Part shown: piece by piece, positions 1-30,754 of the stretch
Layout of the letters: each line of letters opens with the position of its first letter
How positions within the stretch are numbered: position 1 is the first letter of the stretch
IMG/VR virus record: IMGVR_UViG_647533158_000003
Strand: one strand, 5' to 3'
Length of the DNA: 31,322 nucleotides
Origin: a virus
Lineage: Duplodnaviria; Heunggongvirae; Uroviricota; Caudoviricetes
Notes under the pieces: generated by a model
Told to the model about the DNA's origin: nothing
Database searches by the model: none
Seen by the model: only the letters and a program-made list of their open reading frames with translations
Position numbers and translations under genes: made by a program

Positions 1-129
1 CTATTTATCGGAAGGTTTATCTTGCTGCGGTTTGTTGTTGACCATATCGCACAACATAGAGAGCAGCATTAACCGTACTTTAAAGGGAGAATGACTAAAC
101 ACGCGCATACACCTCTTGAACTCATTCAT
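1..129 (-). CDS. mntS: Small manganese-responsive protein MntS (host gene, complete, 42 aa)
   Basis: Reverse-complement translation of 1..129 reads MNEFKRCMRVFSHSPFKVRLMLLSMLCDMVNNKPQQDKPSDK followed by a stop (TAG, complement of 1..3). Matches E. coli MntS as recalled from memory; not on the supplied ORF track because it is under 60 aa. Confidence 0.8.
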   Translation of the reverse strand: MNEFKRCMRVFSHSPFKVRLMLLSMLCDMVNNKPQQDKPSDK

Positions 130-296: not shown

Positions 297-1337
297 CTAA
301 GCTGCCGCGACATTTTTGCGACATTTTAAGGGGTTAAGTCGCACGGCATCTTCAAGGTGGCTTGGGGCGAAATGGGCATAACGCATTGTCATAGTGATGT
401 CAGCGTGGCCGAGAATTTTTTGCAGAACCAGAATGTTTCCGCCGTTCATCATAAAGTGGCTGGCAAATGTATGGCGCAGTACATGGGTAAGCTGGCCGGA
501 GGGGAGTTCAATGCCTGCACGTTCCAGAGCAGAGCGGAAAGCGTTGTAGCAGGGCTTGGGGAACAGAGCGCCTTTTGTTTCAGGTAATTCGGACAGAAGT
601 TCATCATCAAGGGGAATTGTTCTGTTGCGCTTCCCTTTGGTTTTGACGAACGTGACTTTACCCCCGGTGATCTGGGAGCTTTTCAGCGTTGCCGCTTCAT
701 TCCACCTTGCGCCGGTAGCAAGGCAGATTTTGACAACTAATTCTAGGTACTTAACTTTACTTCGTTTGCATTCCAGTAAAAGCCGATCAATTTCTTCGGT
801 AGTGAGGAAAGCCATTTCGGTTTCATCAGTACGATACTGTCTGACGTTTTCTAGTGGGTTGGGTGCTGACCATTCACCAATCCGTTTCAGCTCGTTGAAC
901 ATAGCCAGGAAGTAAGCATGTTCAAGGTTCATAGTTTTCGGGGAAACCTTAGATACTCTGTTGGTACGGGCATAATGCCCATCCAGCCTTTTAGCGCGGT
1001 AGGCTGTGAACAACTGGGCATTAAATTCTGTGGCCAGCGGGAATCCCATGCATTCCGCCGCCCAGGTCATAGCATTTTTACGCTTTTCGCCATTGCTCAA
1101 AGCTACGCCGTGGCGTTCATACCACATTGTTATCAGATCTATTAAAGTTCGCTTGTCCTTCCCTTCACCCAGCCACGGAGCTGCGTCTACTTTCTGAAGC
1201 GTATGGTTTTCGAATGCCAGGGCTTCCCCTTTCGTGGCAAATTTTTTACGTATACGCTTCCCGTTCTTGCCATTACTGCGGTTGACGGTGTAGAAGTCGG
1301 CGATCCATTCGCCTGTAGGAAGTTTACGAACGCTCAT
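297..1337 (-). CDS. int: Phage integrase, tyrosine recombinase (P2/186 Int family)
   Basis: 346-aa ORF. C-terminal region ...LTHVLRHTFASHFMMNGGNILVLQKILGHADITMTMRYAHF... carries the R..H..R..Y catalytic signature of tyrosine recombinases. Located at the prophage end, immediately downstream of the repressor gene. Confidence 0.93.
   Translation of the reverse strand: MSVRKLPTGEWIADFYTVNRSNGKNGKRIRKKFATKGEALAFENHTLQKVDAAPWLGEGKDKRTLIDLITMWYERHGVALSNGEKRKNAMTWAAECMGFPLATEFNAQLFTAYRAKRLDGHYARTNRVSKVSPKTMNLEHAYFLAMFNELKRIGEWSAPNPLENVRQYRTDETEMAFLTTEEIDRLLLECKRSKVKYLELVVKICLATGARWNEAATLKSSQITGGKVTFVKTKGKRNRTIPLDDELLSELPETKGALFPKPCYNAFRSALERAGIELPSGQLTHVLRHTFASHFMMNGGNILVLQKILGHADITMTMRYAHFAPSHLEDAVRLNPLKCRKNVAAA
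309..323. repeat. Putative attL core (GACATTTTTGCGACA), overlapping the last codons of int
   Basis: Exact 15-mer repeated at 30647..30661. An att core overlapping the 3' end of int is a common P2-like arrangement. A chance 15-mer match between the two short flanks is unlikely. Confidence 0.4.
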
Positions 1338-6485: not shown

Positions 6486-6606
6486 TATCTGATGGGGAAT
6501 GTTAACTCATTGACAATACTATAATCTCAGTTGTAAGGTACCGAATGTTATAGTGTTTAAGATGATTAATAGCTTGTTGACTATAAATTTATCTATATCT
6601 CTTAAA

Positions 6607-6650
6607 CCCTCACTTTATTTTGATAAGAGTGAGGGGGGATATGATTTTTT
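6607..6650. terminator. Candidate bidirectional terminator hairpin (CCCTCACT ... AGTGAGGG) with a downstream T-run
   Basis: 8-bp perfect stem at 6607..6614 and 6628..6635, followed by ATTTTTT at 6644..6650. It sits between convergent genes 6303..6485 (plus) and 6657..7694 (minus). Confidence 0.4.
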
Positions 6651-6656
6651 ACGTTC

Positions 6657-7694
6657 TTAAACTTCTACTTCATTTTTAGAGTATATTTCCCCATCTTCTT
6701 TACGTATGCAATCACCAATGATGACTTTAAAATCTAATGATTTAATCGTATCAATAACATGATTGAGATAAATGCTATCAATTGTAGCAGGGCATAAACT
6801 TTTTAACTCATGGCCAAGTGGTGTTAGAATTAAAACCCTTAGTTTAAGTTCTTTCTTTGGATCGTCATGTTTAATCTGCATTACTTTATCATTATATATA
6901 TGATAATAAAAATAGGTTTCTTTACTAAGAGACTTGAAAGTTGAAGCTAATCCCATTGACTCAACTCCAGCAATGATGCCCAATGATTGCATCTCAGATA
7001 AAAAATTATAGTTTAGCTCATTATCTAAGTATTCGTTGCTGAAGTTCGAACCAACTTTCTCCCCCTTGATAATCCTATCAAGAAAGAGAAAAGAGAACAG
7101 TTTTTGTATTTTATTTGCTTCTTTTTGTGTCAGATTTTTGATGAAATCAACAGTTCTTAATGAATACGAACCTGGGCTTTTTAATTCACCTGCAAGTATT
7201 CTTCCCCATAAATCCTGTAACTTCTCTGAACTACTTGTTGCAGCACTATCTCTCCACCTTAGCAACCAATCATTTTCTATATTTTCGGCAGTAGGCTCAG
7301 ACTGATCAATTGAAAGTATTTCTTCGGCAACAAATAATGACTTGGCGATATTTATTTCTTTCTGGACTTCATTTGCAATAAGTTGAGTGCTTACTGCATT
7401 TTTTAAATTATCGAAATTTATGTAAGGCTCCATTGAACCTGAATTATCATACTCTTGTTTACTTTCTAATGAAATCAGTTTGGGGTTGTTTAGATCATTT
7501 AACGAAACGATTGCTTTTCCACTTTTTATGTTCTCAACATCCATCTCTGTTTGAGCCAAAACTAACATTTTTTTCCTTTCCATTTCTAAACTGGCAACTC
7601 CCTCCCTACGCATTTGCCAGGGCTTACATAAAGCGCCAATACCTTTTTCTGCTGTGGTTTCCCACAGTTTAGTTACAAGCTTTGAACCAAACAT
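6657..7694 (-). CDS. Orphan AT-rich accessory protein (345 aa) in the P2 A-to-Q accessory hotspot; candidate anti-phage defense or superinfection-exclusion gene of unknown family
   Basis: Clean 345-aa ORF with an ATG start and an AGGAG RBS. Composition is visibly much more AT-rich than the flanking phage genes. It occupies the slot where P2 carries old/tin. No catalytic motif recognised by eye. Confidence 0.75.
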   Translation of the reverse strand: MFGSKLVTKLWETTAEKGIGALCKPWQMRREGVASLEMERKKMLVLAQTEMDVENIKSGKAIVSLNDLNNPKLISLESKQEYDNSGSMEPYINFDNLKNAVSTQLIANEVQKEINIAKSLFVAEEILSIDQSEPTAENIENDWLLRWRDSAATSSSEKLQDLWGRILAGELKSPGSYSLRTVDFIKNLTQKEANKIQKLFSFLFLDRIIKGEKVGSNFSNEYLDNELNYNFLSEMQSLGIIAGVESMGLASTFKSLSKETYFYYHIYNDKVMQIKHDDPKKELKLRVLILTPLGHELKSLCPATIDSIYLNHVIDTIKSLDFKVIIGDCIRKEDGEIYSKNEVEV

Positions 7695-7697
7695 TCT

Positions 7698-7709
7698 AGG
7701 AGATCTCCT
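7698..7709. promoter_or_regulatory. Perfect 12-bp palindrome AGGAGATCTCCT overlapping the RBS of the 345-aa gene
   Basis: The sequence is its own reverse complement and contains the Shine-Dalgarno AGGAG of the gene starting at 7694. Possible operator or RBS-sequestering hairpin. Confidence 0.3.
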
Positions 7710-8164: not shown

Positions 8165-9226
8165 TCATGCCGCATCCTTATCCGTTGATTCTGTGTAACT
8201 TAAATCAAAGTTAAGGCGCAGTCTTTCCGGTATTTCGGGATCGTTGTTAACAGCGGTCATAAACCTGCGCTGAATGGGCGCTATCTCGCTTTTCTTGTAA
8301 ATCCTTTCCGCCTTTTCAACATCCCCCAGACCGGCAGTGTTCTGCGGGACAATTCCTGCCAGTCCTGCCGGAAAGCGGTGCGCGTTGAGAATGTCCTGCG
8401 CACTGATGTTTTTGATGTTGGCAAATTCATCTTTTGCGGAGATATCCCCCATTTCAATGAACTTGATCGCATCCCCATCCCCGCCAGGAATGTTCACCAG
8501 AATAGTGGAGAAGTTACCGATACCTTTGCTGTCACGCAGTTGCTGTTCAATCTCTTCTTCCATTTCATCCGTCATACTGGGATCACGCGTGTAGAGAATG
8601 CCGCCAGTATGAGCGCCGTTGTGGTAGTAGCGGCGGCGAAAAATTACGGCTTCGCTGTTAAGCAATGCCGAGTGTACGCCGCCGATATAGTCGGGCAGTC
8701 CGTAAATATGCTGTTGCGGGTCGTACATCTTGATAAAAATGATATCTTCCTGTGGCCATACCTGCGGTTCGCCGTCCTGCAATACCACATAATCGCCGGG
8801 CTGGTCTGTGGCGTTGTCCCTGACTTTACGGCGGCGAATATACAAGCCGGGTAAAGGTTCCAGGGCAATCACATCCCCCCATCCGTTGCGGATTTTGCCA
8901 ATCGCAATATCCCCGAAGGTTGTATAGTCAAACGCTGCGGCTTCCAGCTGGTCGTAAGTCAGGCCACCGCCCAGATAATCAGACACAATCATATTTTTCC
9001 GGGCGTGGATGATGCCGCCATGCTGACCATTCAGATTGATGAGCTGTGCCAGTGCCAGCCGGTCAATCGGCTGGGTAAAGTGATCGGCGGCATTGTCGTA
9101 CCAGATGTCGCGGTAATCCGTACCGGTGGTCAGCACGGGTTCCGGTTTGCCGAATGTAATGATGCTCATTTTTTTGGACTTATCGCCGCGCGGGTTGCGC
9201 TTAACGAAGCGGTTTTTTTTACTCAT
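8165..9226 (-). CDS. Q: Portal protein (P2 gpQ family)
   Basis: 353-aa ORF immediately downstream of, and overlapping, the terminase gene on the same strand. Size and sequence are consistent with P2 gpQ portal. Confidence 0.9.
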   Translation of the reverse strand: MSKKNRFVKRNPRGDKSKKMSIITFGKPEPVLTTGTDYRDIWYDNAADHFTQPIDRLALAQLINLNGQHGGIIHARKNMIVSDYLGGGLTYDQLEAAAFDYTTFGDIAIGKIRNGWGDVIALEPLPGLYIRRRKVRDNATDQPGDYVVLQDGEPQVWPQEDIIFIKMYDPQQHIYGLPDYIGGVHSALLNSEAVIFRRRYYHNGAHTGGILYTRDPSMTDEMEEEIEQQLRDSKGIGNFSTILVNIPGGDGDAIKFIEMGDISAKDEFANIKNISAQDILNAHRFPAGLAGIVPQNTAGLGDVEKAERIYKKSEIAPIQRRFMTAVNNDPEIPERLRLNFDLSYTESTDKDAA

Positions 9227-10998
9227 GCAGCCTCTTTCCTTACACCCCAGCGGGATTTCGGTTTGTTTTCGTAGTTGAGTGGTTCGTTATGCAGGGCGTG
9301 GGTAATTGCCCAGAACGCCTCCGCGTGGCCAGTGTCCTGGCTGCGGTCAGCGACAAATGTCATGGCGTTACCGCTTTGCGTGGTGGTGCGGCGTACAGCC
9401 ATAAAGCTGGCCGGGATCTCTTTCAGGTTCTTGTCCCATTCAATACGCTGACTTTCCACCACGTCCGCCGCTTTCAGTACCAGCTGATTTTTCGTGTTCA
9501 TGTCGTAACGAATGGCGACGGCCACGCGCATGGCAAAATGCTGGATGTTGTCAAAAACACCCTGGCCAATACCGGTAACGTCCACTCCCAAATAGGTGAA
9601 GTTGTATTTTTTAAACAGGAGTTCGATCTGCCTGGCCTGATAGCGGAAGTTCATGCCCTTCCAGTTAATAACCTTCAGAACGCGGAATTTCTCTGCGGCA
9701 TACATCGGCGGGGCAATAATCACAAAACACGACAAATCGCCGCTGCGTGCCGGGTCAAAGCCTCCCCATACTGGCCTGTCACCAAATGGCCGCGCAGCGT
9801 CCGGGTTGTGATCCTGCCAGGTGTCCACTTCCACGCCACAGGCTTCCAGATCTGAAAAACTGAATACGGAATCCTTGCTGTCCACGAACACGCACATATA
9901 GAGCATGTTGAAGGTGGCCGTGTTGTAGCGGTTGCGCAGCTTCTCGATGTTGGCCAGGTTGAAGCCACCTGCAATGGCATCTTCCATCGTGATGACATAG
10001 CGCCACTGCCCATCCGGGCAAAGCCGTCCGCCGTTGCGCATTTCATCAAAGGAGGGGAACTGGGCGGCCGCGCGTTTTTTGCTGCCCTGTTTCCATTCCT
10101 CACCCGTCCAGAACGGGTAAGCCTGGTGCGTTTTGGCCGATGGCGTTGAAAAGTAGGTGGTACGCCATTTGTCATGGGTGGCCATTGCGCTGGCCACTTC
10201 GTTAAGCCTGGCGAAGTTAGGCACCCAGAAATATTCGTCACAGTACAGGTGACCACTGTAAGACTGTGCCGTGTTTTTGTTGGTTGAGAGAAAACGCAGT
10301 TCAGCGCCGTTGCTGAGGCGGATCGGGTTGCCGGTCAGCGTGATGCCAAAATACTGTTCTGCAATGTTGACGATGTAAGACCGGAAGTATTCCGCCTGGA
10401 CTTTGGAGGCAGACAGGAAGATTTGCGGATCGCCTGTCATGACCGCGTTTTCAAAGGCTTCAAATGCAAAGTACCAGGTAGCACCGATCTGGCGGCTTTT
10501 AAGGATGTTCCTGACCTGCTGGCCGATGTTTCTGCGCAGGTGTTTCTGGTATTCAAAAAGATGTTCTTCCGCCCAGATGTCAAAATCCGCCTGGGTCAGA
10601 GAGGAAATATCGTTTTTCCTGTTTTTGCGTTTGGGGCGCGGTTCATCGCTGTTGCTATCCCGCGCAGCTGCCTGACCGTTACTCTGGCCGCTGGCCATTT
10701 TTTCTTTATGCTTATTGCTTTGAGCACGCAGCTTTGTGGCATGGGCAATCAGCATGTCCATTTCTTTCAGGTCGAGATCGGTTTTATTATCGCGGCTGGC
10801 CAGCAACTGGTAGCGGCGTTCAATTGCCTCCTCTGTACTTTCAAAGCTGAGTAAATCCGCCCAGCTGTATTTTTCAGCCCAGTAGTAAACGATCCGCGCA
10901 TTCGGCAGATTTAATTCTGATGCAATTTCTTTTGGCGTATAGCGGCGCAAATAAAGTGCGCGGACAACGCCTTTTAGTTCTTCTGAGTATTTAGCCAT
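9223..10998 (-). CDS. P: Terminase large (ATPase) subunit (P2 gpP family)
   Basis: 591-aa ORF divergent from the scaffold gene; the divergent P/O arrangement is a P2 hallmark. Confidence 0.92.
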   Translation of the reverse strand: MAKYSEELKGVVRALYLRRYTPKEIASELNLPNARIVYYWAEKYSWADLLSFESTEEAIERRYQLLASRDNKTDLDLKEMDMLIAHATKLRAQSNKHKEKMASGQSNGQAAARDSNSDEPRPKRKNRKNDISSLTQADFDIWAEEHLFEYQKHLRRNIGQQVRNILKSRQIGATWYFAFEAFENAVMTGDPQIFLSASKVQAEYFRSYIVNIAEQYFGITLTGNPIRLSNGAELRFLSTNKNTAQSYSGHLYCDEYFWVPNFARLNEVASAMATHDKWRTTYFSTPSAKTHQAYPFWTGEEWKQGSKKRAAAQFPSFDEMRNGGRLCPDGQWRYVITMEDAIAGGFNLANIEKLRNRYNTATFNMLYMCVFVDSKDSVFSFSDLEACGVEVDTWQDHNPDAARPFGDRPVWGGFDPARSGDLSCFVIIAPPMYAAEKFRVLKVINWKGMNFRYQARQIELLFKKYNFTYLGVDVTGIGQGVFDNIQHFAMRVAVAIRYDMNTKNQLVLKAADVVESQRIEWDKNLKEIPASFMAVRRTTTQSGNAMTFVADRSQDTGHAEAFWAITHALHNEPLNYENKPKSRWGVRKEAA

Positions 10999-13050: not shown

Positions 13051-13752
13051 ATGGCACTTTCTCCCGCGCAGCGCCACAGCCAGCGCATTGCGATGGAACA
13101 AAAGCTGAAGCACAGCCAGGCGCTGGGCACCACGGAAAGCATGCACCTGCTGGTCAGGGCGCTGGAAAAAGACGTGGAACACGCCCGCACTCTGCTGACC
13201 ATCGCGGATCGTATTGAGTTTAAACGGGATGTGTTACTGCCGCGCTGGGTGCCGACTGTGGAAGCGTATCTGGAAAGTAATCAGGTGTATGCAAACCCTG
13301 TTTTTGCCTGGTGCGTTATCTGGCTGTTTGACGTGGGCGATCTGGATAAGGCGCTGGACTGGGCTGACATTGCAATCAGCCAGCAGCAGGCAACGCCGGA
13401 TCGGTTGCGCAGCAATTTCCCCACGTTTGTGGCCGATACGATGCTGGCGTGGGCGCAGGAAACGGCGGGGCGTGGGGAAAGCATTGAGCCGTACTTCTCC
13501 CGCACGTTTGAGCGGGTGGCGGATACCTGGCGGCTGCACGAACAGGTCACGGCCAAATGGTTCAAGTTTGCCGGGCTGGAACTGTTGCGCAGCGAGGATG
13601 GCCAGAAAACAGCGGCGGGCGTGGATGATATTGAAACGCTGGAGAAAGCCGATCAACTGCTGGCCATTGCAGAAAAACACTATTTAAAAATCGGCGTCAG
13701 AACCGCACGGCAGACCATTGCCGCCCGAATCCGAAAACTGACGCAGGAGTAA
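13051..13752 (+). CDS. M: Terminase small / endonuclease subunit (P2 gpM family)
   Basis: 233 aa. N-terminus MALSPAQRHSQRIA parallels the start of P2 gpM as recalled. Immediately follows the capsid gene. Confidence 0.88.
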   Translation: MALSPAQRHSQRIAMEQKLKHSQALGTTESMHLLVRALEKDVEHARTLLTIADRIEFKRDVLLPRWVPTVEAYLESNQVYANPVFAWCVIWLFDVGDLDKALDWADIAISQQQATPDRLRSNFPTFVADTMLAWAQETAGRGESIEPYFSRTFERVADTWRLHEQVTAKWFKFAGLELLRSEDGQKTAAGVDDIETLEKADQLLAIAEKHYLKIGVRTARQTIAARIRKLTQE

Positions 13753-22713: not shown

Positions 22714-24288
22714 ATGTCACAGACAACTATCACGCTGGCGTTTGAGCAATGGAAAGCGAAACAGGCCGCGACAGGTGAGGCGGTTTTACTGGACGAGTTT
22801 GTGTTTGCCAGTGTGCCAGGACTGAACCCTGATACCCCCGTTGACCGGAATGAAAAACTGCCACCGGCTGCGCAGATTGTTCACCGGCAGCCCGTTACCC
22901 GCACCGGCGTGGTGAATGAAAACGGGGTGGTGTATTCCGCTGTACTGGGGGCAGACGTGGGGGATTTCAGTTTTAACTGGATCGGTCTGCTGAATAAGGC
23001 CAGCGGAACGCTGGCGATGATTGTTCATGCACCGGCGCAGCAAAAGCTGAAAACGAAAGAAGGCCAGCAGGGTAACGTCCTCACCCGTTCATTCCTGATG
23101 GAGTACAACGGCGCCCAGACCGAAACCGGGATTAATACACCGGCTGAGACGTGGCAGATCGATTTCACTGCGCGTATGGCCGGAATGGATGAACGCCAGC
23201 GTCTGGAAAACGTGGACATTTACGGCGCGGCGGCGTTTTTCGGTGATGGTTGGCTGGTCAGTAAAACCGGTAATCAGTTTTTCGTGACCAAAGGCACCGG
23301 CTACGTGGCGGGGTTACGTGCGCCACTGGATGCAAACAAGAATATTACCGTGACCGCCAAACCGGTAAAGGTCTGGCTGGATGTGTGCTGGACGGGGGCG
23401 TTGACCAGTGTCTGGAATGTTCAGAGCAAGATTACCGTAGCGGAAAGCCTGGCTGATTATGTGCAGAACGGCGTACAGCATTACGTGTTTGCAGTGGCCA
23501 GCATTGATGTGAATGGAAATATCGCCGATTTGCGGCCAAAAGGGACGCTGAATGAGCAACAGGCAAGCAACGATTATCTGCGCAAAGATGCCAGTCTTGC
23601 TGATGTAAAAGACAAACCGAAAGCGCGAAAAAACCTTGCACTAGGTGAGCTGGCGACACTCGACAGAAATGATGTGTTGCCGGTGGGGATACCGGTACCC
23701 TGGCCAACGGATACGCCGCCAGCCGGATGGACATTGATGCAAGGCCAGGCTTTTGATAAAGCGGCCTATCCATTGCTCGCGGGTGCGTATCCTTCCGGGG
23801 TCATACCTGATATGCGGGGCTGGACAATTAAGGGGAAACCGGTCAGCGGTCGTGCAGTGCTTTCACAGGAACTGGATGGCATCAAGTCACATACTCACAG
23901 CGCGAGTGCATCAAATACGGACTTAGGCACTAAATCAAGCAGTGCCTTTGATTACGGTACTAAAACAGCCAGCACATTTGACTATGGCACTAAAACCACG
24001 AACAACACCGGAGCGCATACGCACGGTATTTCTGTTGGTAACACAGGCGCAGGTAATGGCGTTTCAGCGGGCTATAACTCAGGGCTGGGCAATGGAACGA
24101 CGGGGAGTGCAGGGGCGCACGCCCATACGGTCGGTATTGGCGCTCATAACCACACCGTCGGAATTGGTGCTCACAGTCACACGGTGGCAATTGGTGCTCA
24201 TGGGCACGCCATTACTGTGAACGCTGCCGGTAACGCAGAAAACACCGTTAAAAACATCGCTTATAACTACATTGTGAGGCTTGCCTGA
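22714..24288 (+). CDS. Tail fibre protein with C-terminal His-x-His repeats
   Basis: 524 aa. C-terminus has repeats AHTHGISVG / [36 protein letters not shown]. Followed immediately by a tail fibre assembly gene. Confidence 0.85.
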
Positions 24289-25590: not shown

Positions 25591-26107
25591 TGGTGAAGCC
25601 ATACCGCTGAAGAATATGCGTGTGACGGTCTCGCAGCAGTTTCAGGATAAAGACCAGTCCGGGCAGACCAGCGCCACGACCAAATCAGAGCAGGGCGCAA
25701 AGGGAAAAGAGCTGCGTATCAGTGGCGAAATACCATTTAAAAAACCGGAGATCCTGAAGCGTATTTTTGAGCTGGCCAGCGCCACCGATACCGGAGGCAA
25801 TCGCCAGAAATACCGTGTTGCCCACGAGGTGGCCAGAGCCGTTAATTTTCGTGAGGCAACGTTCAGCGGAACGCTGGATGCCCCACAGCAGGACGGGAAA
25901 ATGGCCTGGTTGGTGACATTCACGCTGGCAGAACATATCAGCGTGCAGGAAAAGCGGGAGGCCAGGGCAACCGGCAAAACGACAGCGAAAAAACAGACGG
26001 CGGGCAGCACAGGGCAATCCGGTGGGCAGTCTGCCGGAGAAGATGAAGAAAAACTGACGTGGTTTGAAAAGAAAGTGCTGAAACCCGTCAATGATGTGTT
26101 GGGTTAA
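25562..26107 (+). CDS. Hypothetical tail-associated protein
   Basis: 181-aa ORF coupled to the flanking genes, with Lys/Gln/Gly-rich low-complexity segments. No family recognised. Confidence 0.5.
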   Translation: MTSIPTLALNGEAIPLKNMRVTVSQQFQDKDQSGQTSATTKSEQGAKGKELRISGEIPFKKPEILKRIFELASATDTGGNRQKYRVAHEVARAVNFREATFSGTLDAPQQDGKMAWLVTFTLAEHISVQEKREARATGKTTAKKQTAGSTGQSGGQSAGEDEEKLTWFEKKVLKPVNDVLG

Positions 26108-27810
26108 TGATGAAACCAGTAAAACGCCTTTACCTTTCAACGGATGAAGTTCACCTAGCCGATGCCAGCCTGGTGCTGGAGCTGAACAGTTGCGGCCGGG
26201 GATTTATCACGGCACAGACAACCACGGATTACACTGGAAAACTGGTGCGGCTGGATGTGGGGTACAGCGATCTGCTTTTGCGCTGGTTTACCGGCTATGT
26301 GGAACGCTCACAACCCGCAGAAAATGGCTTTCAGCGTCTGTTTGTGCGCGAACTGGTCGGCGTATTTGAAAGAATATGGCCATGTTCATTTCAGCACCCT
26401 ACCTTGCGGAAGGTGGCCAGTTGGCTGGAGGAAAACAGCGGGATCACCATCAGCGTACCTGATGCCCCATACAGTGACACGCCGATCCCACATTTCACCC
26501 ATAACGGTACCGGGTACCAGCTGCTGAATAATCTGGGCAGGGCATTCAGTATCCCGGATTACATTTGGTATCAGATGCCGGATGGTTCGCTGTACGCTGG
26601 CGGCGCAGAAAAGGCGCTGTTTGCCGGTCGTCCGGTCGATATTCCGGCAGAGTTCAGCCAGGGTGCTGCTGGCGGTAATTCCATGACATTGCCGGTTATC
26701 CAGAGTTTGCGACCGGGTGCGGAACTGAACGGGGAGCGTGTGACCAAAGTCCATCTGACCAATGACACGATGGCTGTCACATGGACACCCAGGAACCGCG
26801 CCACGGGTAAGCCATTGCAGAAAACACCGGCACAACGCCAGGTTGAAAGTCATTACCCGGAACTGGCCTCCGGGCTTCATTTGCCGAAAATGGCCAGAGT
26901 GGTATCACACAGCGAGGCGGTCACCAGCGGTAATTTTGCCGATCCGTTCCGGCCAAGGTATGCCGTTGACGTGCAGCTGCTTGATGCAGACGGGAACCCG
27001 GACAATCAGACTCCGGTTTATACCGCAGTACCGCTGCCGGTACCGATGGCCGGCCATGACTCCGGTATGTTCCAGTTTCCGCCAGAAGGGACGCTGGTTG
27101 AAGTCGCGTTTACCGCAGGTCGACCGGATAAGCCGTTTATCAGGCAGACGTTGCCGGATGGTACCAGCCTGCCGGATGTTAAACCCGGTGAGCAGCTGCA
27201 ACAGCAGCGGGCTGAAGTGTCGCAGCGAGTTACCCAGGCTGGTGACTGGGTGCGGCAGACCGATCAGACCATCAGTGAAACATCGATGGCGCGGACGGTG
27301 AAAGCAGATACAGAACAGCGCGAGCTAGTCAGCCGTGAAACCACGGTTAAAGCCACGGATAAAACTACTGTGGTGGGTACCGCTACCCTGATGGCCGGAG
27401 CCATTCAGCAGGTCAGTGCCGGGGATTTTAGCCAGGCCGTGAAAGGCAACAGGCTGGCCAGCATTGAAGGGAATGACGAAACCGATATAACCGGGAAACA
27501 GTCCACGAAAGTGGCCGGTGCTGTGACCGTTGACGTGGGGGAAAGCCTGACAGAAAAGATTGCCGCGCTGCGCAAATCCGTGGCCGCTGGCGGTCAGCAG
27601 GTTATGGGGGCAACTGTGCATATTGGCAGTGAGAGTACCAACGCCCTGACCATGATGCTGGACACCATTGATTTGCTGGCAGAACTGGCGCGGCAGTGCG
27701 CGAGCCATTCACACCCCAGTGTCGGTACGCCAACCAATGCCGGAGCGTTCACCCAGACAGCGACAAAGGCCGGACAGACCCGGAGCAAGTACCAGAGCAT
27801 CATTGCCTGA
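26107..27810 (+). CDS. Putative baseplate hub / central spike protein (gpD-like N-terminal region with a gpV/gp5-like OB-fold segment)
   Basis: 567 aa. The segment RYAVDVQLLDADGNPDNQTPVYTAVPLPVPMAGHDSGMFQFPPEGTLVEVAFTAGRPDKPFI resembles the OB-fold signature of gpV/VgrG spike proteins. Last gene before the late terminator. Confidence 0.55.
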   Translation: MMKPVKRLYLSTDEVHLADASLVLELNSCGRGFITAQTTTDYTGKLVRLDVGYSDLLLRWFTGYVERSQPAENGFQRLFVRELVGVFERIWPCSFQHPTLRKVASWLEENSGITISVPDAPYSDTPIPHFTHNGTGYQLLNNLGRAFSIPDYIWYQMPDGSLYAGGAEKALFAGRPVDIPAEFSQGAAGGNSMTLPVIQSLRPGAELNGERVTKVHLTNDTMAVTWTPRNRATGKPLQKTPAQRQVESHYPELASGLHLPKMARVVSHSEAVTSGNFADPFRPRYAVDVQLLDADGNPDNQTPVYTAVPLPVPMAGHDSGMFQFPPEGTLVEVAFTAGRPDKPFIRQTLPDGTSLPDVKPGEQLQQQRAEVSQRVTQAGDWVRQTDQTISETSMARTVKADTEQRELVSRETTVKATDKTTVVGTATLMAGAIQQVSAGDFSQAVKGNRLASIEGNDETDITGKQSTKVAGAVTVDVGESLTEKIAALRKSVAAGGQQVMGATVHIGSESTNALTMMLDTIDLLAELARQCASHSHPSVGTPTNAGAFTQTATKAGQTRSKYQSIIA

Positions 27811-27820
27811 CCATCCCATC

Positions 27821-27847
27821 AGCCCGCATCTAAAGCGGGCTTTTTTG
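27821..27847 (+). terminator. Rho-independent terminator ending the late/tail operon
   Basis: Stem AGCCCGC (27821..27827), loop ATCTAAA, stem GCGGGCT (27835..27841), followed by TTTTT. Lies 11 nt after the hub gene stop. Confidence 0.7.
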
Positions 27848-28399
27848 TACCCCTCGCCTGACGCCCTGCGGCGCAATCTGAGCGCCAAAATCCACACACT
27901 GACACCACGTAACACCTAAAAAGGATCTGTGCCGTCACGTTGCGCTGACGTAGCCACACGCAGACAAAATAAATCTTTCGCAGACAAAAACGGCACTACA
28001 CCGCACCCGCCTGCGGTTTTTGGATCGTGAAAATTTTTCAGTTTTATTTTTCTTCAAACCAGATCTCCAGACCGCACCAGCATTGATGGCTTTGCAGAAA
28101 ACCAAAACTGAAATGATTGAAAATAATTTCACTGTTTTTCAGTAAATAGGATTTATTATTCTATTATATTTTACCGTAACTATCAGATATATAATGATAA
28201 AATTAACTTTGGTTATAATGAAAAGATTGGCAAAAGGGATGTAGTAGTAGACTAAGTTATAGAAATTGTATGATTTTCTTCAAGTTACGATCTGTTGAAA
28301 ACATTATTGGGTTGAAAAAAGTGAAATAGTTATTATGATTTAGTATTCGTGTTTTGATAGTCATTAGATAAGCTTAGAATTGTTATAATATAACATTCA

Positions 28400-28993
28400 A
28401 TGGATAAAATTATGAGCATACTTACTCAATATGGAAAAGAAATTTTTGCTTTTATCGTTCCTGTCTTCACCTTAATTATAAATAAATATTTTAAAAATAG
28501 TGCCAAGATTAGCTACGGGGAATTGCATCAATTTACTTATCTGATTAACCAACCTTTAACGAATCAAGAAGGTGAAGTGGTGAAATCGTCGCAAACCGTA
28601 CATACGCAATCATATGTTTTTAAGAATGAAGGTAGAGAAGCAGCAACGAATATGGAGGTTATTTTTAACTATGCACCGATGTATCTTAATATTTGGCCAT
28701 CGCGCCTCTATACGGTAAAAAATGATTCAGAACAAAGGCATATTATGGTATTTGATTATTTAGCACCGAAAGAGGTTATACGGTGTGAAGTGATAGCTAT
28801 CAATACACAGGTGCCAATGCTTTTATCTGTAAGGTGCAAAGAAGGTCTTGCTCAGAACATAGTGCTATCGCCACAAAAAGTTTTCCATCCTGCTTTTATA
28901 AACTGTGTTCGTTTCTTGATATTCCTGGGGTCGGTAAGTCTGGTATACATTCTTGTAGTTTTACTTCAGTGGTTACTCTTAAAAACAGGTTAG
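28400..28993 (+). CDS. Hypothetical two-TM membrane protein (197 aa), AT-rich cargo gene
   Basis: Predicted TM helices near the N-terminus (IFAFIVPVFTLIINKYF) and C-terminus (FLIFLGSVSLVYILVVLLQWLLL). Composition is strongly AT-rich. An extended -10 element TGTTATAAT lies at 28381..28389. Confidence 0.55.
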   Translation: MDKIMSILTQYGKEIFAFIVPVFTLIINKYFKNSAKISYGELHQFTYLINQPLTNQEGEVVKSSQTVHTQSYVFKNEGREAATNMEVIFNYAPMYLNIWPSRLYTVKNDSEQRHIMVFDYLAPKEVIRCEVIAINTQVPMLLSVRCKEGLAQNIVLSPQKVFHPAFINCVRFLIFLGSVSLVYILVVLLQWLLLKTG

Positions 28994-29070
28994 AAAGTTA
29001 CCTGTGCAAAAACGCTTTTAGCTTGTGTGATGTTATTGTAAATATTTTCGTGAAATTAACCATTTAAAGA

Positions 29071-29092
29071 AAGCCACTATTTTGAGTGGCTT
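29071..29092. terminator. Candidate bidirectional terminator hairpin between convergent cargo genes
   Basis: 8-bp stem AAGCCACT (29071..29078) and AGTGGCTT (29085..29092) with loop ATTTTG. Lies between the 3' ends of 28400..28993 (plus) and 29133..30557 (minus). Confidence 0.35.
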
Positions 29093-29132
29093 CATTAGGT
29101 TTCTTTAATGGTAGAATTGCGAGTAATGTTTA

Positions 29133-30557
29133 TTAACTCACTAAGTTCACATAGCTGATTGCTATACGTAAAAAACTGTCGAGTGTATCGACGCTTTCTT
29201 TTATTTCTTTGTTGACACTAATCAGTTTTTCCAATCGTTCATCACTAAAATGACTTGTTATATGAATTAAATCTTCTAATATCGAGACTAAATCATTAAC
29301 AATACTAAGCTCTTTTGAAATTTCATTTTTAATAAAGTAATATTCTTCATTACCGAGTTTATCAATTAATTTATGCTGTAACTTATCCCACTTATCCAAT
29401 AGTCCATATGTTTCTGATGTTATTTTTTTCGTATTTACCAGAATAGTAGAACCTTCACTCACTTCTTTAGCATAAAGTCTATTGTGCTTTAACCAGCGAA
29501 TATTTTCATTTCTTTGTTTCAAGATGCTTTTATTTATCTTTTCGAGTTCAACATGTTTGTTCCATTTTTTTATAATATCATTTATCTTATTGTCTGTAAT
29601 TTCATACTCATTAAGAACGTTGCTGTTAAATGATAATTCTTCTACTTCTTTTAGGGAAGACTCACTAATTTCAATATCTTTAAGGTGGTTTTTTGCCTCA
29701 TGTAGAAAAGTTAATTGGTTAATTAATTGGAAGTTTTGGATGTTGGCTTCGTTGCATATTTCTGTTTTTAAAGACTCAAGAGCACCGTGTGTTTTTCCAG
29801 CGTGTGCAAACCACCAATCCTCTTTGTTATCATCACAAATAAAAATTACATTTTTTATTTTCTCTGATTTGGCTTTTTCAATGATTTCTCTCCATAAATA
29901 CAAATCACCGAATTTGTCCTGAAATTCAATGTTTGTGAAGAATGATTTACTTTTCTTTGGCGCGTCTTTGAATCCTGGTGGTATCTTATTTTCATATCTT
30001 TTTTCACCAAGTGCATTTATTTTATCTATTTGTTCCTGAGTAGGGACTTCACCAACTCTATTAGAGGTAATTATGTCGATCCTGTCACGAATAATGTCAT
30101 GCTTCGATATTTTCTTTTTGTTTTCAATTCTTGGAGTTATCTTTTTATTAATATACTCCTCAATTGGTTTTTTAATTTTACTTTGCAGATCAGAAAGTTC
30201 TTTGTTTAAAGCGCTATAAAGATGTTTTTTTACACTACCAGAAGATAATATTTCTTTCGTATAAATGCTTTCTAATTCATCTTTAATTTTATCTAGGCTT
30301 TTAATACTATCTTCAATTACAGAACGTCTGTTTCTCTGATATTCAAATCCAACTTGGAATGGTATCCAAGTTCTGGGAGCAATAGCATCCATTACTTTAA
30401 GTATATCTTCGCGGGTATGATCTTCACATCTATATAAGTTAAGAAGGCAATTTGTATCAAAAACAAAAAGAGTGGAATCATCCAACCATATATTTGCTAC
30501 TGATTCAGTAGGAGTACTATAGAAACCTAAAAAGGTTGATTTCAAGGGGACCTCCAA
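29133..30557 (-). CDS. PIN-like domain protein (474 aa), candidate nuclease-type defense or abortive-infection effector; start probably TTG (30555..30557, or 30543..30545 after a GGAGG RBS)
   Basis: N-terminal strand motif LFVFDTNCLLNLY is a typical PIN beta-1 signature with the first catalytic Asp; a later acidic cluster VIFICDDNKEDWW follows. The C-terminal half is long, Lys/Glu-rich and helical. The gene is AT-rich and sits in the cargo island. Confidence 0.7.
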   Translation of the reverse strand: MEVPLKSTFLGFYSTPTESVANIWLDDSTLFVFDTNCLLNLYRCEDHTREDILKVMDAIAPRTWIPFQVGFEYQRNRRSVIEDSIKSLDKIKDELESIYTKEILSSGSVKKHLYSALNKELSDLQSKIKKPIEEYINKKITPRIENKKKISKHDIIRDRIDIITSNRVGEVPTQEQIDKINALGEKRYENKIPPGFKDAPKKSKSFFTNIEFQDKFGDLYLWREIIEKAKSEKIKNVIFICDDNKEDWWFAHAGKTHGALESLKTEICNEANIQNFQLINQLTFLHEAKNHLKDIEISESSLKEVEELSFNSNVLNEYEITDNKINDIIKKWNKHVELEKINKSILKQRNENIRWLKHNRLYAKEVSEGSTILVNTKKITSETYGLLDKWDKLQHKLIDKLGNEEYYFIKNEISKELSIVNDLVSILEDLIHITSHFSDERLEKLISVNKEIKESVDTLDSFLRIAISYVNLVS

Positions 30558-30646
30558 TGTTTTTAACTACTTCATAACTAGCATATTTTATTCAAGTGAT
30601 CCGGTGTTCGCAACTCCTTTGGATAATGGTGTCTAAATATTAATGA

Positions 30647-30661
30647 GACATTTTTGCGACA
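30647..30661. repeat. Putative attR core (GACATTTTTGCGACA)
   Basis: Exact copy of 309..323, lying between the last cargo gene and the mntR upstream region. Confidence 0.4.
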
Positions 30662-30737
30662 CTTTTTTGTTTATTTTTATATTGCACTGTTAATTGCATG
30701 TTTTTTAAGGGATAAATTTTTTAATAATTAAAAACAA

Positions 30738-30754
30738 AGCTATATTATATAGCT
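30738..30754. promoter_or_regulatory. 17-bp perfect palindrome AGCTATAT-T-ATATAGCT upstream of mntR
   Basis: It is its own reverse complement around a central T, about 100 bp upstream of the mntR start. It shares the ATATAGC half-site with the MntR-box-like repeat at 188..205, but in everted orientation. Confidence 0.35.

Follow-up and report, generated by a model that had tools for sequence, protein, structure and literature searches.

Which function should be assigned to two identical and closely spaced 11-bp sequences located in the non-coding DNA that follows the late operon of a tailed phage? The question is raised by the IMG/VR virus record IMGVR_UViG_647533158_000003, a stretch of 31,322 nucleotides which was analysed at its full length and is referred to hereafter as the window. 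In an earlier inspection of the letters of the window (the sequence-only reading), two exact copies of CGCAGACAAAA, spaced 20 bp apart in a GC-rich stretch between the late terminator and an AT-rich island, had been considered as possible protein-binding sites or as the remnant of a displaced phage element. A motif search performed over the whole window recovered both copies with the same sequence and coordinates (27959-27969 and 27979-27989), and no further copy was found elsewhere in the window, even allowing one mismatch. The two 11-mers are direct repeats with a start-to-start distance of 20 bp, and because a 9-bp spacer, TAAATCTTT, separates them, the word "tandem" had been used loosely, the copies not being arranged head to tail. 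The setting had been accurately described, with a hairpin (27821-27841) followed by a T-run detected by the terminator scan, and a GC-rich non-coding stretch, devoid of any plausible ORF, in which the GC content passes from 0.57 to 0.28 after position 28000.

From the window alone, the repeat pair is weakly significant. For CGCAGACAAAA, 0.89 chance matches are expected in the window and at least two matches occurred in 20 of 100 shuffles; regions in which an exact 11-mer is repeated within 40 bp number two in the window, versus 0.28 repeat pairs expected per Markov shuffle. The other close exact repeat, AATTGGTGCTCA, occurs 27 bp apart (24162-24200) inside the tail-fibre gene 22714-24288. The real support for the pair comes from the comparison of sequences across related phages.

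The prophage and its cargo

The window starts with mntS (1-129, minus strand), matched to K-12, and ends with mntR (30855 onwards). The alignment of both window ends with the uninterrupted K-12 mntS-mntR spacer identified an 11-bp att core, GCTATATTATA, occurring as attL (199-209) and attR (30739-30749), which bounds an insert located in this intergenic spacer. The insert consists of a Peduoviridae prophage related to the Cronobacter phage ESSI-2 and to the Escherichia 'ESSI2_ev' phages, which encodes an integrase, the gpA replication protein, a portal protein, a gpP-like large terminase and a gpM-family small terminase, and carries HP1-orf34/orf35-like genes at the end of its tail operon (Table 1). 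Among 5,426 complete E. coli genomes, 479 contain matches to ESSI-2/Quadragintavirus-like sequences. In the reconstructed attP, the att core is framed, at a distance of ~95 bp, by repeats of the GCGACATTTTT type (window 305-326 and 30645-30661); one of them, GCGACATTTTTGCGACATTTTA, lies inside the int gene at its 3' end and the other, GAGACATTTTTGCGACAC, close to attR, and both are likely to be integrase arm-type sites. The attP of ESSI-2 holds the 3' end of ssrA and GTGGACA repeats, unlike the mntS-mntR prophage. An att repeat was also sought close to the non-coding block that contains the 11-mers; the true core is that given above.

Because the K-12 alignment places the bounds of the insert beyond them, the AT-rich genes located past the repeats belong to the cargo of the prophage and not to the host DNA. 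Among the relatives, the cargo slots vary on both sides of the block containing the repeats (for instance in L002, L003, L051 and L080), and the cargo encountered elsewhere comprises a serine acetyltransferase, an Abi protein and small ORFs. Defence-gene hotspots or variable cargo similarly adjoin cos in P2 and P4 (PMC9122126). A PADLOC search with the cargo proteins of the window yielded no match. A second AT-rich island (6500-7700, GC ~0.31), which encodes a DUF2806 protein (6657-7694, minus strand), separates the gpA replication gene from the portal gene. The old/tin hotspot of P2 occupies this position, though cos is located elsewhere in the present phage.

Table 1. Main features of the prophage and of the probable cos region, in window coordinates (offsets counted from the start of the core)
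Feature	Coordinates	Strand	Remarks
Large terminase subunit, gpP-like ATPase/nuclease	9223..10998	-	Pfam Terminase_6N, Terminase_6C, Terminase_5
Small terminase subunit, P2 gpM family	13051..13752	+	Pfam PF05944, E 3e-38; PHROG 74 'terminase small subunit'
HP1-orf35-like baseplate gene	26107-27810		Upstream of terminator; PHROG 2258 'baseplate protein'; HP1_ORF34 domain in neighbour
Late (tail) operon intrinsic terminator	27821..27848	+	7 pairs, 6 G-C, then TTTTTT (terminator scan)
Probable cos left arm	27918..27995	.	Conserved module boundary, GC-rich dyad box, two repeat units
Distal repeat, unit 1, CGCAGACAAAA	27959..27969	+	GACAAAA core starts 33 bp before the putative cosN core; more variable unit
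Proximal repeat, unit 2, CGCAGACAAAA	27979..27989	+	Ends 6 bp before the inferred top-strand nick
Putative cosN core, CTACACCGCACCCGCCTGC	27996..28014	.	19-mer exact in 221 loci
Probable cos right arm	28015..28152	.	T-run, GATC 28023-28026, TTTCAG, GC box, distal cluster
Right-arm proximal motif, TTTCAG	28036-28041	.	+40
Right-arm GC-rich hairpin-like box	~28066-28097	.	Alignable box also in P2, 186, P4
Right-arm distal cluster	CTGAAA 28108-28113, TTGAAA 28117-28122, TTTCAC 28127-28132, TTTCAG 28137-28142		~10-bp spacing
AT-rich cargo between cos and attR	28160..30738	both	Inside the prophage by K-12 empty-site comparison
Cargo ORF, 197 aa	28400-28993	+	
Cargo PIN_8-domain protein	29133-30557	-	Pfam PIN_8

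A probable cohesive-end site around the repeats

A non-coding block of ~235 bp (27918-28152), whose left arm contains the two 11-mers, very probably represents the cohesive-end (cos) site of this ESSI-2/HP1-like prophage of the Peduoviridae, an identity that the sequence-only reading had not recognised. Five virion-derived genome records of homologous phages end or break within 27996-28010. The linear ESSI-2 record exhibits a 3' end reading ...GGCACTACACCGCACCCGC and starts, on the same strand, with CTACACCGCACCCGCCTGC; the resulting 15-nt terminal duplication, CTACACCGCACCCGC, is that expected from filled-in 5' cohesive ends. The virion assemblies of the phages ev129 (NC_049394), ev015 (NC_049395), ev040 (NC_049393) and ev239 (NC_049392) break in the same 15 nt, with a read-through of the Nextera adapter. 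Their left pieces stop at ...GGCGCTAC (ev129, ev015) or ...CTACAC(C) (ev040), and their right pieces begin with GCACCCGCC (ev015, ev040, ev239) or CGCCTGCGG (ev129). These ESSI2_ev genomes belong to plaque-forming phages, the virions of which were isolated from viromes (PMC6969025), and a loss of Nextera (transposase-library) coverage towards the termini is typical of phages with cos ends, HP1 among them (PMC4893331). Based on these database records, the 5' cohesive end would consist of 15 nt (27996-28010), the nicks being uncertain by a few bases. The ends of the IMG/VR contigs are uninformative in this respect, since trimming at gene boundaries has affected many of the proviral contigs.

Some side observations concern the records themselves. 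The Nextera adapter/index CTGTCTCTTATACACATCT... was left at the ends of the RefSeq records and, in ev040, inside the record at cos, and the ev239 record displays a chimeric join after CTACACCGCACC. A cos annotation is absent from the inspected ESSI-2/Quadragintavirus-like records, and no description of the cos site of the ESSI-2 group was found in the literature. GATC (Dam) sites occur around the core at 27924-27927, 28023-28026 and 28062-28065; the GGATC located at ~+26 is kept in most lineages, GTGTT being found instead in one type of relatives (the gpM cluster 2 described below). A 65-aa ORF on the minus strand (27935-28132) was rejected as coding, owing to its basic, low-complexity composition and to frame-breaking 1-nt indels in the alignments.

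The closest parallel in position is offered by the Haemophilus phage HP1 (Hpunavirus, Peduoviridae), in which orf34 and orf35 are followed by 192 bp, cos, 250 bp, attP and int. In the present prophage, the orf34/orf35 homologues are followed by 185 bp, the core, the cargo, att and int, so that the core is positioned like the HP1 cos, except that HP1 contains no cargo between cos and attP. The tail-side arm of HP1 possesses three CACGGAAA direct repeats at -15, -45 and -109, the last of which ends 6 nt from the terminus, versus two repeats, at -13 and -33, in the present phage. The right arms are also alike: HP1 displays TTTCAG at +37 and TTTCA-type motifs at +128, +138 and +148, with a ~10-bp period, and the distal cluster of the ESSI-2-like phages occurs at offsets +112, +121, +131 and +141. 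TTTCAG is replaced by TTGCA in one ESSI-2-like lineage. The core sequence of HP1 differs, however, and its annotated cohesive end measures 9 nt, compared with the ~15 nt proposed here.

The phages P2 and 186 and the satellite P4 depend on the same terminase families, with a gpM of the PF05944 family and a gpP-like large subunit, and their right arm likewise comprises a proximal motif, a GC hairpin box (GCTGGCGCGG.CT) and three motifs at ~+115 to +137. In addition, the stretch +60..+79 of the P2 cos matches the window at 27929-27948 in 18 of 20 positions, at nearly the same offset from the end. Several differences nevertheless distinguish these sites from the present one. The cos of P2 and 186 adjoins the portal gene and is not located after the tail genes, their cohesive end of 19 nt, GGCGAGGCGGGGAAAGCAC, is longer than the ~15 nt proposed here, and no P2-type cosN was found anywhere in the window with up to three mismatches. 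Moreover, the arm motif of P2, 186 and P4 reads TGCAT instead of TTTCAG, and they exhibit no clear counterpart of the two units beside the nick.

In phage lambda, cos is organized as cosQ - cosN - cosB, with R sites and IHF I sites. The outline would be similar, with a nicking site flanked by short repeated binding or bending elements which, as established for lambda, give specificity to the terminase, but homology is absent at the level of both sequence and proteins. The R sites of lambda occur on the side where packaging starts. The units described here belong to the arm in which P2 and P4 differ.

Repeat units and terminase modules among related phages

A first set of relatives comprised 23 loci from Enterobacter, Raoultella, Kluyvera, Serratia, Pectobacterium, Hafnia, Cedecea, Salmonella and other genera. 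They were retrieved via the last tail gene and therefore the sampling was not biased by the repeats. A ~210-235-bp block homologous to 27918-28152 occurs in all the complete loci. Further IMG/VR scans led to 221 loci in which the exact 19-mer core and both arms are present, and the direct-repeat pair was recognized at equivalent positions in 137 distinct homologous left arms. Unit 2, at -13 from the core, fits NAC-N-R-A-A in all but two of these (135/137), and the upstream distance to the best second copy is 20 bp in 84 arms, 17 bp in 26, 16 bp in 8 and 21 bp in 6, the lineage with GACGGAA units being characterized by a spacing of 17 bp and not 20. The commonest forms of unit 2 are GACAAAAA, GACGGAAA, GACCAAAA, GACGAAAA and CACGGAAA. 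The core shared by both units is short, (G/C)AC-N-R-AA, and even among close relatives only ~7 of the 11 bases (GACAAAA) are kept, a restriction that the sequence-only reading had not noticed. The full identity over 11 bases is restricted to the lineage of the window, unit 1 of the closest relatives reading CGCTGACAAAA, TGCTGACAAAAG or ACCGACAAAAT. The sequence-only reading had proposed to abandon the motif if it proved not to be conserved or enriched in related genomes; the pair is conserved among them, at fixed positions.

Besides being conserved in position, the two units vary in concert. The pairs encountered in the different lineages include two GACAAAA, two GACGAAA, two GACGGAA, two CACGAAA and two CACGGAA units, as well as GGCCAAAA associated with GACCAAAA. 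The 9-mer of unit 2 matches the 27 nt upstream of it in its own genome at 6.94 of 9 positions, versus 6.17 for other genomes and 5.28 for a control region of the same genome, and none of 2000 permutations, in a test that ignores relatedness, reached 6.94. The rare pair types come from separate deep lineages. ESSI-2 possesses the same unit 2 as the window, despite a different att and a different Int.

The type of unit is also associated with the type of terminase. The gpM sequences fall into three clusters, 49-55% identical between clusters. Cluster 0, to which the gpM of the window belongs (40 loci), is found with a unit 2 of the GACAAAA type in 31 loci, GACCAAAA in 8 and GACGAAAA in one, and with TTTCAG in the right arm. 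Cluster 1 (20 loci) is invariably associated with GACGGAAA and with TTGCA in the right arm, and cluster 2 (9 loci) with GACGAAAA in all loci and with TTTCAG. Altogether, the gpM cluster predicts the type of unit in 68 of 69 loci, and both cos arms switch together with the head genes. For this very reason, the association with gpM is confounded by linkage and the repeats cannot be singled out from the arms in which they reside. Mixed GACAAAA/GACGAAA pairs occur under a gpM of cluster 0 in four loci (L068, L164, L023 and L010).

The tail genes of the cluster-2 phages are 88-93% identical to those of the window up to ~100 bp from the repeats, although their gpM is 51-54% and their capsid protein ~70% identical, and they possess the other type of cos arm. 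Among phages which share tail genes and differ in the head module, the similarity breaks at ~27880-27918. It follows from this breakpoint and from these identities that the cos arms and the repeats are exchanged together with the genes for the head and the terminase, at a distance of ~14 kb, and not with the adjacent tail gene. Mosaicism of modules was similarly observed in nine loci (L051, L053, L058, L059, L061, L063, L072, L074 and L117), with tail genes 77-93% identical to those of the window, gpM, capsid and gpL 51-72% identical, and a single breakpoint, located ~100 bp before the core is reached from the tail genes.

Some twenty loci with the exact core lack an orf35 homologue, some of them with too little upstream sequence to judge. 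They include IMG/VR contigs devoid of tail genes (L229, L228, L205, L174, L204, L270, L261, L183 and L248), and the gene content, as examined in L229, suggests that these core-sharing elements are satellites. L229 encodes a P4-type integrase, an Ogr/Delta zinc-finger protein beside cos, a Toprim/DUF927 primase and a P2-family major capsid protein, with AT-rich genes between int and cos. The satellite-like elements keep the 19-nt core, the entire right arm and unit 2, and contain an A-rich patch or a divergent copy at the position of unit 1. Several of them copy their own unit 2 at this position, e.g., ATCAC...AAAA in L248 and GCAGA in L174, both present twice. In this respect, they parallel P4, which shares cos with its helper P2: a 55-bp cos core is common to P2 and P4 according to Ziermann & Calendar 1990, as cited in later papers (PMC5694545, PMC9594776), and the P2-P4 homology reaches ~7 bp into the arm equivalent to the left arm. 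These features suggest that unit 2 may be close to essential and unit 1 accessory. Since P2 and P4 share the other arm and the satellite-like elements conserve only unit 2 well, unit 1 may even be dispensable.

Proposed role of the repeat units

Taken together, these comparisons favour protein-binding sites, the first of the two functions envisaged at the outset. The two copies probably make up a conserved pair of direct repeats in the cos left arm, one being its distal and the other its proximal unit, and would serve as contact or positioning subsites for the terminase. Owing to their location directly beside the packaging cut site, they would most likely dock or position the packaging enzyme. 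The second function, a remnant of a displaced element, was discarded because the block is an integral and conserved module of the cos site of an apparently intact prophage. The protein that would bind the units, and the effect of its binding, are what we infer from these observations; the small terminase subunit, gpM, is tentatively put forward as the reader, an assignment with slightly less than an even chance of being correct.

According to the proposed mechanism, the terminase, composed of the large subunit gpP and the small subunit gpM, would recognise the replicated phage DNA at 27918-28152. The invariant core would serve as the nicking site of the gpP-like nuclease, staggered nicks within 27996-28010 producing the ~15-nt cohesive ends. 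Loading of the terminase would mainly take place, as in P2, P4 and HP1, on the arrayed and periodic TTTCAG motifs of the right arm, and the units of the left arm would provide extra contacts on the tail-gene side, most likely read by the small subunit. In this way, the units may position, orient or activate nicking at the invariant core, and their A-tracts might add a phased bend.

A purely structural role, or the binding of a host factor, represents the most serious rival and is nonetheless unlikely. Unit 2 would then be the outer part of an extended cosN used by the nuclease, and unit 1 an A-tract bend or an IHF/HU site, analogous to the I sites of lambda cos and not a sequence-specific terminase site. 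The 3' A-run of each unit is indeed present in every variant, the A-rich patch alone is kept at unit 1 in satellite-like elements, and a spacing of 20 bp amounts to approximately two helical turns. It is difficult to reconcile with such a role that the non-A part of unit 1 (GAC, CAC, CAGAC) follows unit 2 within genomes, including several satellite-like elements, and that, in the GACGGAA lineage, the A-run is limited to AA or AAA and the spacing amounts to 17 bp. Moreover, the IHF consensus WATCAANNNNTTR was not visible by eye in the left arm.

It is improbable that the pair has no function as such, unit 1 being a neutral local duplicate of the cosN-proximal sequence and the 11-base identity a recent accident. 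The lineage-specific character of this identity, the divergence of unit 1 in the closest relatives and the weak significance of the repeat within the window agree with such an origin, but neutral copies would be expected to decay and not to follow the changes of unit 2. Furthermore, a second unit can be recognised at a fixed distance throughout the Enterobacterales, and the Haemophilus phage HP1 possesses repeats of this type as well.

Even less probable is a small RNA or a bidirectional terminator that would insulate the late operon from the cargo. For 27990-28017, the terminator scan does predict a terminator-like hairpin on each strand, with the A-run of unit 2 as the T-tail of the minus-strand one. 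In the plus-strand stem, however, the 5' half is invariant and the 3' half changes without compensation (TGCGG, TGCGC, TGCAC, TGCAA, TGCCA), and the pairing is therefore not maintained. An Rfam scan of 27600-28600, with E-values up to 10, returned chance-level leader and snoRNA matches, none of them near the gathering score, and a sigma-70 promoter scan detected nothing across the repeats. A hand-built -35/-10 promoter (TGACGT / TAAATC) was rejected as weak and not kept in the GACGAAA lineage.

The weakest reading, which we hold to be very improbable indeed, identifies the units as integrase arm-type sites or as the remnant of an attachment site or displaced element: GACA-containing short direct repeats presumably recall the arm sites of P2-type Int, and attP lies a few hundred to ~700 bases beyond cos in HP1 and ESSI-2, but the att core is located 2.75 kb from the units, as against the ~150 bp adopted as a criterion for such sites, the core is flanked on both sides by a different repeat (GCGACATTTTT), and ESSI-2, which shares unit 2, integrates at the 3' end of ssrA with another att and another Int.

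The reading of the units as terminase contact subsites also permits a bolder proposal, more doubtful than the contact itself and rather unlikely, according to which the left-arm repeats would constitute a second, lineage-specific determinant of specificity, co-evolving with the small terminase and deciding which helper and satellite are paired for packaging. If true, the units would represent a cosQ-like or I2-like element undescribed for Peduoviridae, acting among P4-like, capsid-gene-carrying satellites that share the invariant 19-nt cosN.

In our best description, the unit pair belongs to a cos site of the known P2/HP1 type that had so far lacked an annotation. The value of the finding resides in this annotation and in the experimental access that it gives to terminase recognition; no new principle is involved. 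From a practical point of view, it may be used for the correct linearisation of genome records, for the design of cosmids and transducing particles, and for the recognition of satellites by their shared cos core. With regard to the biology of these phages, it places the cos of a widespread and little-studied group of prophages on the map, the location of cos explains the variable AT-rich cargo found on both sides of the block, and the two units of 7-11 bp offer a defined target for recognition by gpM/gpP on the arm which is not common to P2 and P4.
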